64,000 bases of DNA from Trueperaceae bacterium (GTDB lineage: Bacteria > Deinococcota > Deinococci > Deinococcales > Trueperaceae): assembly GCA_965213925.1 (NCBI GenBank), contig OZ243927.1, positions 992,001-1,056,000 on the forward strand. Reading direction: 5' to 3'. Positions 46,854-50,253 of the stretch are shown here, piece after piece (position 1 is the first letter of the stretch; every line of letters starts with the position of its first letter). The notes below the pieces were generated by a model that saw only the letters and a list, made by a program, of their open reading frames with translations, was not told the origin of the DNA and did no database searches. Position numbers and translations under genes: made by a program.

Positions 46854-47405
46854 ATGAAATACGAACCGACCCCGGAAGTGAGGCGCAAGGCTGAGGCTGC
46901 TGGCATCGATTTAGACGCCCTCGAGCAGAGCGACCCGACCACCTACGCCATGCTGAACGCGCAGCGCGCCGTGCAGGTCTCGCCGCAGCTCAAAGAGGTT
47001 GCGGGAGAGGCGCTTTTCAGCACGTTTCCCGAGCGTCAGATTTTTGACATGCCGCAAAGTCCACCGGGAGATACCCGGCTCAACCTGCTCGTCTTTCCGC
47101 CCCTGAATGACGCTGAATGGGTACGTTTAGACGAAACGCTCGCCTCTCTAGCGACCCGCCTTCCCCTCGAGCACGCTTTCTACCGCGTCGTCAGCGACGC
47201 GGTAGGCGAACGCCGCGAGCTAGCCCTGCCCATTGCGCCGGGCAACTGGCGTGGGCAGGGCGGGGTCATGGTCGGCCCGTTTGCGAGCGACGCGGCCGCT
47301 AAAACCTGGGGTGACGCACATGTAGACGCCTCGAGCGGTCTAGTCAGCGATACCCTGCCCTACAGCGGCGCGTGGTTTTGTGACCTTTTCCGGGGCGACA
47401 CGTAA
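46854..47405 (+). CDS. hypothetical protein
   Basis: 183-aa ORF directly downstream of trmB with typical codon usage. Confidence 0.65.
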   Translation: MKYEPTPEVRRKAEAAGIDLDALEQSDPTTYAMLNAQRAVQVSPQLKEVAGEALFSTFPERQIFDMPQSPPGDTRLNLLVFPPLNDAEWVRLDETLASLATRLPLEHAFYRVVSDAVGERRELALPIAPGNWRGQGGVMVGPFASDAAAKTWGDAHVDASSGLVSDTLPYSGAWFCDLFRGDT

Positions 47406-47409
47406 CGGC

Positions 47410-47718
47410 TTAACTTAAAGAGGTCGCGACTTCGGCGTTCCCCAACCGCAAGTGTGTCCCGTCCTCTAGGGTGAGGTCGCCCTCCGCCGTGATGCCGCCA
47501 ATCACGATGGTGCCAGGTCGCACCTCTCCGCCCGTAAGCGTCGCGACTTTGTACGCGATAAAGTTGTCCCGGTAGATGAGCAGTTCGGTGCCGTCTTCGC
47601 AGTTCAAGCAGGTGGCTAGCTCGAGGCTTTCTTGTCCGACACTCTCCTGCCTGAGACTCTGTTTCTGTTCGGGTGAGGTGATGACGACGTAGCGTTTGTT
47701 GAGTTTATGATTGAGCAT
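47410..47718 (-). CDS. hypothetical protein
   Basis: 102-aa ORF with AAGGGGG RBS, divergent from the HD-GYP gene. Confidence 0.55.
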   Translation of the reverse strand: MLNHKLNKRYVVITSPEQKQSLRQESVGQESLELATCLNCEDGTELLIYRDNFIAYKVATLTGGEVRPGTIVIGGITAEGDLTLEDGTHLRLGNAEVATSLS

Positions 47719-48171: not shown

Positions 48172-49095
48172 ATGAACGACGTGGACGAAGCTGCCTTACC
48201 GCAGGGGCTATCCCTCCGCAAGAAAGGGGAGAGCCTCGAGACGGTCTCCTCGAAAGCGATTGAGTTACAGCTTTTAGTGGCGAGTCAAGGCGTAGAGATT
48301 CTTGAAGGGCAACTTCATAAAGGTGAGCGTATAACCCTCATTCCCTCAGGTAAAGCGGTAGAAACGTACTATATTTTAGAAGGACAGTTACGTGGCGACG
48401 CAGCTTCCGGGTCTACGGTTGTCGGTGCGGGAGATTATCTCGTGACAGAGTCGCTAGAGACGTCCTATACCCTGCTCGCGCAAACCGACGTTCGCTTTCT
48501 CTATTTCACCTCAAAGCCCACCTTTCACGAAATAAGCGAAGAGCTTGGCGATCTGATGCAGCTCGCCGTCGAAGTCGAAGTTAAAGACGGCTACACGAGT
48601 GAGCATTGCAGGCGCTTACAGGTACTCTCTTACGCTGCGGGTCAAGAACTTGGTTTAGGGCAAGACAGACTCTATCTCTTGGATTACGGCGCGTATCTGC
48701 ACGACGTGGGCAAGGTCAAAGTGCCCGTCAATATTTTGCGTAAACCTTCCACCTTGACGCAAGCGGAGTGGACGCTCATGAAAAAGCATCCTACGTTCGG
48801 GCGCGAACTCCTCGAGAAAACCTACTTGAAAAGAGCCGGTATCATCGTCGAGCAACATCATGAGCGCTTAGACGGAAGCGGCTATCCCCACGCACTCTCT
48901 GGGGAGGACGTTCTGGTCGAGTCTTATATCGTCGCCGTCGCGGACGCCTACGACGCGATGACGACAGACCGCCCCTACCGCCGCGCTGCGCCGCCAGAGC
49001 ATGCGTTTGCCGAGCTTAGGAGATACGCCGGGATATACTATCCAAAAGAGGTCGTGGACGCCTTTATTTCGGTCGTGATGAGAAAAGCGCTTTAG
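48172..49095 (+). CDS. cupin-like N-terminal domain plus HD-GYP phosphodiesterase
   Basis: ETYYILEG...GDY cupin-like pattern; YT.EH, LHDVGK, HHERLDGSGYP and AVADAYDAMTTDRPYR. Confidence 0.88.
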   Translation: MNDVDEAALPQGLSLRKKGESLETVSSKAIELQLLVASQGVEILEGQLHKGERITLIPSGKAVETYYILEGQLRGDAASGSTVVGAGDYLVTESLETSYTLLAQTDVRFLYFTSKPTFHEISEELGDLMQLAVEVEVKDGYTSEHCRRLQVLSYAAGQELGLGQDRLYLLDYGAYLHDVGKVKVPVNILRKPSTLTQAEWTLMKKHPTFGRELLEKTYLKRAGIIVEQHHERLDGSGYPHALSGEDVLVESYIVAVADAYDAMTTDRPYRRAAPPEHAFAELRRYAGIYYPKEVVDAFISVVMRKAL

Positions 49096-49782
49096 TAGCG
49101 TTACCTAAAAATTTACGTGCCCGGCTGAAAATAGGTGAGCGAATGTTATCGCATCCGCAGTTTCGCACATTTTGCTGGCTAAGCGCTCGAGAAGGCACAA
49201 AGCGCAACGTTAATATTATTCCTAGTTCGCTCTATATTCGGCTTACCGACTTGAGACGTGGCAAATCACTACGCCAGAGCCAAAATGTAATTAGTATCAC
49301 AGCGTATGCGCGTACTTGTTTCAACTATTGAAATGATTTCCACAAACAGCATCAACCTATCTTCAAAAATAAAAAGATGAGAGCCGTTCGCGCGTTGAAA
49401 AACCCTTAATGTTCGTTCAGAACGAATAAGAAGAATTTCACGCACTATTAAAAAAGCTTCTATGAGTTTCTAGTGTGCCTGATATCACTTGTTCTCATGG
49501 TTGTGAGAATTTCACCTCTAAGTATTTCAATACCCATGATACGTTGTCTTTCGAGGTTGATAAGCCTCATCGGAAGCGACGACTTCTGCCCCGCAAGGAG
49601 CCTTTAGCTATCATGCCGTTATCAAACGCGCTGGCTCGATGACCAGATGCTACCTGCTGCTAAAGGCTCTTCTGGGCGCTTGGGACAGAAGAAGCTAGTA
49701 GCGCAACCGGCCGGGAAACTCTTCCGGACAACTTGAAAAGCTTCGGAAAACCGGAGCACGCCATATCAGGGAGGATATGAAA

Positions 49783-49914
49783 ATGAAAAAGTCACTTATT
49801 AAAGCGTTGGTTCTTACTCTTACTCTTACTGCGTTTGGTACGGTCTCGACGGCGAGCGCCGCCAAAGGCTCGGACAAGGCTCCGTCAGTTCAGAAGTTTA
49901 GAGTCAACCGCTAA
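49783..49914 (+). CDS. 43-aa secreted pre-peptide 1 (MKKSLIKALVLTLTLTAFGTVSTASA-AKGSDKAPSVQKFRVNR)
   Basis: Manual translation; GGGAGG RBS; Sec signal with A-S-A site; followed by a terminator; alternative ATG at 49777. Confidence 0.85.
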   Translation: MKKSLIKALVLTLTLTAFGTVSTASAAKGSDKAPSVQKFRVNR

Positions 49915-49933
49915 AGGTTAAAAGTTCACCAAT

Positions 49934-49969
49934 AAGCTCCTCTACAAAGATGTAGAGGAGCTTTCTTTT
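49934..49969 (+). terminator. terminator of pre-peptide 1
   Basis: AAGCTCCTCTACA-AAGA-TGTAGAGGAGCTT followed by TCTTTT. Confidence 0.85.
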
Positions 49970-50003
49970 GCCTATTTTTCGCTGTGAAGTTTTCCACATT
50001 GTA

Positions 50004-50033
50004 GTTGACGCTTCAAAGGTGAGCAGGTTAAAC
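50004..50033 (+). promoter_or_regulatory. putative promoter of pre-peptide 2
   Basis: TTGACG-18 nt-TAAACT. Confidence 0.5.
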
Positions 50034-50076
50034 TCGCTTGTCTGCAGACGAAATTTAGGGATAAAAGAGGGTGAAC

Positions 50077-50202
50077 ATGAAGAAACTCACAAGCCTAACG
50101 CTCGTTTTGGTACTAGCTATCTGTGGTTTATCTGTAGCGTCTGCTGGCTCCTCCACTTCGGATGGTGAACCGTCGGTTCAGAAGTACAGAGTCAACCGCT
50201 AA
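50077..50202 (+). CDS. 41-aa secreted pre-peptide 2 (MKKLTSLTLVLVLAICGLSVASA-GSSTSDGEPSVQKYRVNR)
   Basis: Manual translation; AGAGGG RBS; Sec signal with A-S-A site; C-terminus shared with peptide 1. Confidence 0.85.
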   Translation: MKKLTSLTLVLVLAICGLSVASAGSSTSDGEPSVQKYRVNR

Positions 50203-50221
50203 ATCATAAGAGATACGTCTG

Positions 50222-50253
50222 AGCGTCTCCGCGCGGAAGCGGAGGCGCTTTTT
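50222..50253 (+). terminator. terminator of pre-peptide 2
   Basis: AGCGTCTCCGC / GCGGAGGCGCT stem followed by a T-tract. Confidence 0.75.

Follow-up and report, generated by a model that had tools for sequence, protein, structure and literature searches.

In a 64,000-nucleotide (nt) stretch of the genome of a Trueperaceae bacterium (Deinococcota; assembly GCA_965213925.1, contig OZ243927.1, positions 992,001 to 1,056,000 of the forward strand), hereafter referred to as the window, two small tandem genes, pep1 and pep2, are located downstream of a gene for a cupin-HD-GYP phosphodiesterase of cyclic di-GMP (c-di-GMP), with a c-di-GMP-II riboswitch-like aptamer directly upstream of pep1. This arrangement is one copy of a cassette, composed of a cupin-HD-GYP gene, a c-di-GMP-II riboswitch and a gene for a putatively exported product with a short conserved C-terminal tail, which recurs as duplicates in the same genome and has been retained in several genera. 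The peptide genes are always found just 3′ of the HD-GYP gene, in most cases with a c-di-GMP riboswitch in front of them, and this points to a peptide output of second-messenger signalling, so far undescribed, in a lineage of Deinococcota. The reading preferred here, to which a probability of roughly 0.55 is given, is that pep1 and pep2 encode Sec-exported micro-proteins whose production would be gated by c-di-GMP and whose C-terminal tail would be the working part, as the output of this cassette. The initial annotation of this DNA had described two unannotated open reading frames (ORFs) as candidate signalling pre-peptides; the context added here comprises the riboswitch, the recurrent pairing with HD-GYP genes, a third paralog and longer proteins that end in the same tail.

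If the peptide is a signal, an intracellular second messenger would be linked to cell-to-cell or envelope signalling in Deinococcota, a phylum for which we know of no peptide signalling. Should it have another role, it would still represent a new family of exported proteins, tagged by five residues at the C-terminus, which gene callers and family libraries miss. Additionally, the cassette is compact, with three parts (the peptide, the enzyme and a 160-nt RNA), and open to direct testing.

Two small genes with a common C-terminal tail

The initial annotation proposed two ORFs of 43 and 41 amino acids (aa), each with its own ribosome-binding site and terminator, and this was borne out by the sequence, the ORF list and the hairpins. 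The features concerned are the following:

49783-49914, + strand: pep1, 43-aa pre-peptide; an alternative ATG at 49777 would give 45 aa (sequence and ORF list)
50077-50202, + strand: pep2, 41-aa pre-peptide, tandem paralog without a riboswitch; an alternative GTG at 50071 would give 43 aa
49769-49775, + strand: Shine-Dalgarno sequence GGGAGGA of pep1 (direct reading; invariant in 3/3 species)
50067-50071, + strand: Shine-Dalgarno sequence GAGGG of pep2 (direct reading)
49934-49963, + strand: terminator-like hairpin 3′ of pep1, 13 pairs followed by TCTTTTGCCT; the stem is kept in relatives
50221-50250, + strand: terminator-like hairpin 3′ of pep2, 12 pairs (8 G-C) followed by TTTCATGTTC
50005-50034, + strand: promoter-like site of pep2, TTGACG, 18 nt, TAAACT (consensus match only)

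The last ten residues are PSVQKFRVNR in pep1 and PSVQKYRVNR in pep2, the sole difference being F/Y, and the tail DNA (49882-49914 and 50170-50202) is identical in 30 of 33 bases, as the near identity noticed at first had indicated. Since only four of the 52,713 small ORFs of the genome end in [FYW][RK][VIL]N[RCK], three of which are signal-peptide ORFs of this family, the tail match is not due to chance. A relaxed form of the motif ends 5 of the 44,753 genome ORFs of at least 30 aa, namely pep1, pep2, the third paralog pep3, a 118-aa lipoprotein and one ORF that is devoid of a signal peptide and looks spurious; the motif is restricted to these genes in the 4.7 Mb genome. A general sorting tag was considered and rejected, because genome-wide the tail is carried only by HD-GYP-linked genes. 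Across 25 members, the tail shows P at position -10 (21/25), [FY] at -5 (25/25), R at -4 (20/25), [VF] at -3 (25/25) and N at -2 (23/25), the residues at -4 in the family being R, K or E and the last residue being R in 16 members, C in five, N in three and K in one.

The Lys-rich N-terminus, hydrophobic core and A-S-A site that had been described were recognized by eye in both pre-peptides, which begin with MKK and have a hydrophobic core of 12-14 residues and ASA ahead of the polar part. The same was observed by eye in all 22 micro-peptide members, with a basic N-terminus, a 12-14-residue core and small residues at -3/-1 (ASA, VFA or VLA). The predicted mature peptides would thus comprise approximately 17 aa for pep1, with the end SVQKFRVNR, and approximately 18 aa for pep2, with the end SVQKYRVNR. 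The possibility that pep2 is a lipoprotein, raised by its LAICG string, was discarded, as the lipobox consensus does not accommodate Ile at -1.

Regarding the local signals, the GGGAGG of pep1 (49769-49774) is placed 8 nt 5′ of the ATG at 49783 and the GAGGG of pep2 (50067-50071) 5 nt 5′ of the ATG at 50077, and this Shine-Dalgarno spacing makes the inner ATGs, which give the 43- and 41-aa forms, the likely starts. The string GGTTGACGC of the promoter-like site of pep2 is kept in 3/3 species of the genus. Terminator-like hairpins with a T run amount to three in the region versus 1.9 +/- 1.4 in shuffles, and on the two ORFs and their terminators Rfam gave nothing beyond chance-level matches to terminator-like families. 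The local G+C content is 0.45-0.51 versus approximately 0.60-0.65 in the flanks. Blocks upstream of the aptamer (49400-49562) and of pep2 (49975-50000) are kept in all three species, and TGTGA...CAC strings found in these blocks, TGTGAGAATTTCACC near 49502 and TGTGAAGTTTTCCACA near 49985, resemble CRP/FNR-type sites.

Coding constraint and distribution of the family

The pep1 and pep2 genes are syntenic beside aroQ, in the same order, in 3/3 genomes of the genus (the window genome, G000, and genomes G022 and G023), and the start, stop, frame and length of pep1, pep2 and pep3 are kept in the orthologs. For nine ortholog pairs, the whole-ORF ratio of non-synonymous to synonymous changes per site (pN/pS) was 0.13-0.69. 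When the pep3 tails of G000 and G022, the most diverged ones, were compared, 7.0 of 7.7 synonymous sites were found changed, and 6 of 22.3 non-synonymous sites. Since the synonymous sites diverge and the residues are kept, the tail is constrained as protein and not as DNA or RNA. The selectively conserved C-terminus that the initial annotation expected of homologues was therefore found, in the pN/pS values as well as in the tail composition. The signal regions, which had been described as diverged, are indeed unlike between the paralogs pep1 and pep2, but those of each type show good conservation from one ortholog to another. Taken together, and as judged from sequence comparison, pep1 and pep2 are real protein-coding genes.

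The F/Y pair had also been proposed to represent two specificity variants. One F and one Y copy are present in all three genomes of the genus; however, the tails are swapped between the signal-peptide types in G022 and a metagenome contig carries Y in both copies (P0004 and P0006), so that the proposal can be held only tentatively.

A word-index protein search resulted in six clusters of 40-43 aa, the window's own included. A profile search against 1.84 billion representatives retrieved eight proteins at E <1e-10, of which seven are relatives, six with 40-43 aa and one with 121 aa. The latter, the metagenome protein P0007, is a case in which the gene caller fused the riboswitch leader with the peptide; such read-through calls may hide family members in databases. 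The eighth match, a repeat-rich 871-aa protein, was taken as spurious, and a ninth, weaker match, P0012 (41 aa, E 3.5e-10), is a relative. All of these proteins are nameless in their sources. Pfam gave no match for pep1 and pep2, and NCBIfam gave only signal-peptide-level matches with E values of at least 0.0095, far under the cut-offs. In six-frame searches with the peptide profile, significant matches were obtained in 3 of 128 genomes of the family, all in the genus, and in 3 of 364 genomes of the phylum, together with one signal-peptide-only match; one unpublished genome, G089, is counted in the family tallies, but none of the claims depends on it. When contigs were scanned with alignments, a single locus, in a same-genus metagenome-assembled genome, was found among genomes, and 16 pattern matches with no relatives among metagenomes. 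The peptide family is thus one without a Pfam or NCBIfam name, found only in Trueperaceae genomes and metagenome proteins.

A c-di-GMP-II riboswitch-like aptamer upstream of pep1

49563-49720, + strand: c-di-GMP-II riboswitch-like aptamer with an 85-nt insertion in the P3 loop (Rfam, covariance model R1)

This aptamer is the sole Rfam match in the region and lies directly upstream of pep1. With R1, a covariance model built here from ten canonical riboswitch copies, it reached 44 bits (E 3e-8), and the ortholog aptamer of G023, which is mostly free of the insertion, matched RF01786 with 43.8 bits (E 2.8e-7). The aptamer contains both core strings, GGAAGCGACGA and AGCTAGTAGCGCAACCGGCC, and keeps the two pseudoknot strings, AGTAGCGCAACC and the loop string TGGGCGCT. 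No second R1 match was detected in the window, so pep2 has no riboswitch.

In the alignment of 13 R1 matches, which was fitted to the model and favours structure, both partners have changed in 21 of 22 pairs and pairing is seen in 81% of the cells, versus 35.5-40.5% in controls with a slid partner strand, and none of 500 shuffles reached the observed level. Covariation of the P1, P2 and P3 helices, as expected for c-di-GMP-II, was thus observed in an alignment that is itself model-fitted, and in 3 of 13 matches the pseudoknot loop GGGCGC and GCGC strings also co-vary (GGGCAC with GTGC). With respect to regulation, P1 has anti-Shine-Dalgarno strings (UCUUCC or CUCUUCCC) at its 3′ edge, and in one genus a terminator seems to be used in place of Shine-Dalgarno masking; the c-di-GMP-II switches of Clostridioides difficile are ON switches. 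A string GAGG(N7-8)GCCTC just 5′ of the aptamer (window 49533-49575) could pair with the P1 5′ strand AGCCTC, representing a possible competing hairpin that is kept in both cassettes (also in L019 and L052).

It is known that c-di-GMP riboswitches switch adhesins, pili and flagella. The elements described here resemble the c-di-GMP-II riboswitch (RF01786, clan CL00127) in aptamer sequence, in the architecture of P1, P2 and P3 with a pseudoknot and in the exported downstream product predicted for them, but the gene controlled is a 41-43 aa micro-ORF, and the window copy carries the 85-nt loop insertion and lies below the cut-off. According to PMC12452182, c-di-GMP riboswitches are enriched in Deinococcota.

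The cupin-HD-GYP partner gene

48172-49095, + strand: cupin-HD-GYP c-di-GMP phosphodiesterase gene, 307 aa (Pfam, PDB sequence matches, motifs and fold)

The product of this gene matches Pfam HD_5 (PF13487) at 9.8e-28, has intact HDVGK and HHERLDGSGYP motifs and shows PDB sequence matches to the HD-GYP enzymes 4mcw, 5z7c and 4r8z. Its N-terminal 140 aa adopt a cupin fold in the structure model (mean confidence, pLDDT, 83), and the top Foldseek matches are cupins, such as TM1459. Tetratricopeptide (TPR) repeats were not found in the partner, in which Pfam shows only HD_5 and HD and the N-terminal domain is cupin-like. The prediction of a complex between the cupin domain and the pre-peptide scored 0.01, against a mark of 0.32, a result that is uninformative in either direction.

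An AT-rich spacer of approximately 470 nt (49095-49562, G+C 0.40-0.48) separates the HD-GYP gene from the aptamer; it contains no ORF above 62 aa, and its first 300 nt are unconserved among the three species. Upstream of the HD-GYP gene, a 183-aa ORF (46854-47405, + strand) and a 102-aa ORF (47410-47718, - strand) are found, neither of which matches Pfam or NCBIfam.

The cassette is repeated within and across genomes

G000, contig C1, 3916651-3916776: pep3, MKKVAIKV...TTKIFRVNR, third paralog with its own terminator

Directly ahead of the pep3 gene is a riboswitch that matches RF01786 with 69.1 bits, above the cut-off of 53.5, and which itself lies 85 nt 3′ of a second cupin-HD-GYP gene, whose 321-aa product is 67% identical to the window HD-GYP. 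The order HD-GYP, riboswitch, peptide of this locus is the same in G022 and G023, with loop insertions of varying size, and no further neighbour in common was found between the pep1/pep2 and pep3 loci. In G023, a fourth peptide, with the tail NPFRFDN, adjoins a third HD-GYP paralog, and in G000 the third HD-GYP gene is followed, 10 nt further, by the start of the 118-aa lipoprotein, which ends in VDPFRFNN and has the lipobox LLGC.

Across the family, the survey comprised the 30 best cupin-HD-GYP loci, a match at E <=1e-40 being present in 40 of the 128 family genomes. A tail-bearing ORF with a putative export signal was observed downstream of the HD-GYP gene in 8 of these 30 loci (genera g1, g13, g35, g17 and g22), a count that depends on the tail motif defined from the genus, since members outside the genus were located by synteny together with that motif. 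In g13, 42-aa peptides ending in LFEFNR follow the HD-GYP gene, and in g35 (L060) a 41-aa peptide ending in KFEVNK does so. In g17 and g22, the gene that follows encodes secreted proteins of 97-101 aa ending in DPFRFNR, which belong to a family (15 clusters) whose VDPFRFN-R end does not vary, named hypothetical protein where the source names them; the structure model of a 97-aa relative was poor (pLDDT 62.5). Signal-peptide micro-ORFs with other tails were found in L065, L073 and L081, the last of these (L081:981-1178, genome G122, g35) being a 65-aa signal-peptide ORF after the cupin-HD-GYP gene whose mature part is composed of GAIATK repeats.

The R1 riboswitch was found in all three pep1 loci of g1 and, after the HD-GYP gene, in 6 of 27 loci outside g1 (L058, L059, L065, L072, L073 and L082). 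In both L072 and L082, the riboswitch is followed by the gene for a tail-bearing 97-101 aa protein and then by that for an S8 lipoprotein.

Proposed working of the cassette

In the mechanism proposed, a cue on the cupin domain would set the HD-GYP activity and thereby change the c-di-GMP level, which the riboswitch would read, gating pep1 and, at the second locus, pep3. The pep1 and pep2 products would be exported by the Sec pathway and cut by signal peptidase I after A-x-A, leaving approximately 17-18 residues, and pep2 would represent a tandem duplicate equipped with a separate promoter and terminator but lacking a riboswitch. The exported peptide may then use its tail to act on a putative partner beyond the cytoplasm, either as a ligand or as a signal. 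The extracytoplasmic site of action is suggested by the longer relatives, which are plainly secreted or lipidated, and the tail is probably an extracytoplasmic ligand or signal.

Several observations weigh against this proposal. The signal-peptide cleavage of the members was judged by eye, and the expression of pep1 and pep2 is predicted from their sequence; a search for sequencing runs turned up two of unspecified kind, both from one study, and none marked as RNA. Between pep1 and pep3, the tail hardly differs, a poor fit with cassette-specific signals, and the relatives of 97-118 aa, which have a probable folded part, indicate that the tail works on larger proteins too; since these larger relatives carry it, the tail need not be a diffusible signal. 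Regarding c-di-GMP gating, the window aptamer scored only 28.2 bits (E 0.005-0.02) with RF03169, under the gathering score of 40, and its partial RF01786 match reached 21.7 bits against a cut-off of 53.5. Given this sub-threshold score and the 85-nt insertion, the aptamer could be decaying, and the ortholog aptamer of G022 reached only 31.7 bits with R1. In addition, when the leaders were folded, the Shine-Dalgarno pairing probability shifted in opposite ways in different orthologs, with no consistent ON/OFF logic. Finally, c-di-GMP gating is not universal, since a riboswitch is lacking at pep2, at the g35 peptide (L060) and at the 118-aa lipoprotein.

Alternative explanations and comparison with known systems

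The alternative that survives best, although regarded as unlikely, is a quorum-sensing circuit of the Rap-Phr type, in which the trimmed peptide would be re-imported by an oligopeptide permease, bind the cupin domain of the HD-GYP protein and alter c-di-GMP hydrolysis, with the riboswitch closing the loop. The initial annotation had recognized the layout of RRNPP(A) pre-peptides in pep1 and pep2. As defined in PMC10075063, the RRNPP signature comprises a propeptide of 10-100 aa, a Sec signal and an adjacent receptor of 250-500 aa with TPR repeats. The layout stood, with four of five signature elements assigned here, the Sec signal being a putative one read by eye: the propeptides have 43 and 41 aa, and the adjacent proteins of 307 aa and, at the pep3 locus, 321 aa agree in length and adjacency only. 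Membership of RRNPP(A) did not stand, since the partner is a cupin-HD-GYP protein devoid of peptide-binding TPR repeats and no TPR receptor adjoins the peptide genes.

The likeness to Rap-Phr and other RRNPP(A) systems is nonetheless considerable, as an enzyme gene is followed by one for a pre-peptide of approximately 40 aa with a Sec-type signal and a conserved C-terminal end, the adjoining gene encodes a cytoplasmic protein of 250-500 aa, and several paralogous cassettes are present per genome. Tandem duplication of propeptides is likewise known in RRNPPA systems, whose propeptides are matured by extracellular proteases, as stated in PMC11343458. An S8 protease gene lies 3′ of the tail-bearing gene in g17 and g22, and the genome has 13 SBP_bac_5 binding-protein genes, none of which is linked to the cassette. 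On the other hand, cupins mostly bind small molecules or metals, the cassettes hardly differ in their tails, import is unlikely for the relative of 118 aa, a lipoprotein, and peptide uptake is hypothetical. Further differences are the phylum, Deinococcota instead of Bacillota, the c-di-GMP-II riboswitch between partner and peptide genes, and a motif that runs to the last residue and is common to exported proteins of 97-118 aa.

A broader version of this idea, c-di-GMP-based peptide communication outside Bacillota in which the cupin-HD-GYP protein would be the receptor-enzyme of the re-imported peptide and the riboswitch would provide feedback between second messenger and secreted peptide, is given slightly less credence. 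A literature search, which covered few subscription journals, found no RRNPP-type system described in Deinococcota, in agreement with the initial annotation, and no paper linking c-di-GMP riboswitches or HD-GYP genes to secreted micro-peptides.

Less probable again is the proposal that, in the envelope, the peptide serves an exported protease as ligand or inhibitor. In this case, the free tail would dock as a beta-strand or product mimic in an S8/PDZ-type protease of the c-di-GMP regulon, an idea favoured by the gene order of L072 and L082 mentioned above, by a G000 ORF behind a 36.7-bit RF01786 match that resembles those S8 proteins in its N-terminal strings, and by the position of the tail at the exact C-terminus, where R-x-N-R is like a basic-residue cleavage product, by analogy with subtilase prodomains. 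However, the last residue, the would-be P1, is the most variable one (R in 16, C in 5, N in 3 and K in 1 of 25), S8 adjacency was observed in only 2 of 30 loci, and a prodomain fold could not be claimed from the poor model of the 97-aa relative.

A somewhat more doubtful alternative considers the products as uncleaved small membrane proteins of the MgrB type, whose hydrophobic segment would remain membrane-embedded, leaving the tail to control a sensor or an enzyme in the membrane. Many small membrane proteins of bacteria are of this size and are built in this way, with a basic N-terminus ahead of a single hydrophobic segment and a short polar tail, and MgrB itself is alike in size, in its single hydrophobic segment and in its short conserved extracytoplasmic tail. 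Unlike MgrB, the members described here have cores of only 12-14 residues, too short for a membrane span, which are followed in every member by small residues at -3/-1 in an A-x-A motif, and their larger relatives have plain signal peptides or the lipobox LLGC, being clearly secreted or lipidated.

A type I toxin or bacteriocin-like membrane-active peptide is highly improbable: small hydrophobic-plus-cationic peptides in tandem copies would be in keeping with it, but no immunity, transporter or modification gene was found near either locus (antisense RNA was not searched for), the predicted mature part is hydrophilic and not amphipathic, and both the HD-GYP and riboswitch link and the presence of the tail on proteins of 97-118 aa fit it poorly. 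The least probable alternative, with odds close to nil, is that the shared tail is a non-coding RNA element or mobile repeat, as the initial annotation had considered: the 30/33 identity of the tail DNA and the AT-richness of the region relative to its flanks are compatible with it, but the divergence of synonymous sites with kept residues effectively excludes this reading, and the restriction of the motif to these genes in 4.7 Mb, the conservation of frame, start, stop and length in all orthologs and the chance-level Rfam results on the ORFs also oppose it.

The c-di-GMP-II regulon of the genome

In G000, eight RF01786 matches lie above the Rfam cut-off and several below it. The larger ORFs that follow the other c-di-GMP-II riboswitches of this genome have, by eye, signal-peptide or lipobox-like N-termini, and because these ORFs look exported, an exported product would fit the regulon. 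Several of the riboswitch-downstream ORFs are lipoproteins of 670-750 aa, and the ORF after the sub-threshold RF01786 match (36.7 bits versus 53.5) has N-terminal strings in common with S8 proteases of other genera. The riboswitch-gene pairs at 3021070 and 3986137 appear to be duplicates of one unit. Moreover, tandem riboswitches of 63 and 76 bits (G000, contig C1, 3695764-3696087, - strand; L007 and L014) were found upstream of a gene for a 166-aa secreted protein, and a third riboswitch at that place (63.5 bits) precedes the next gene, which encodes a secreted protein of 190 aa.

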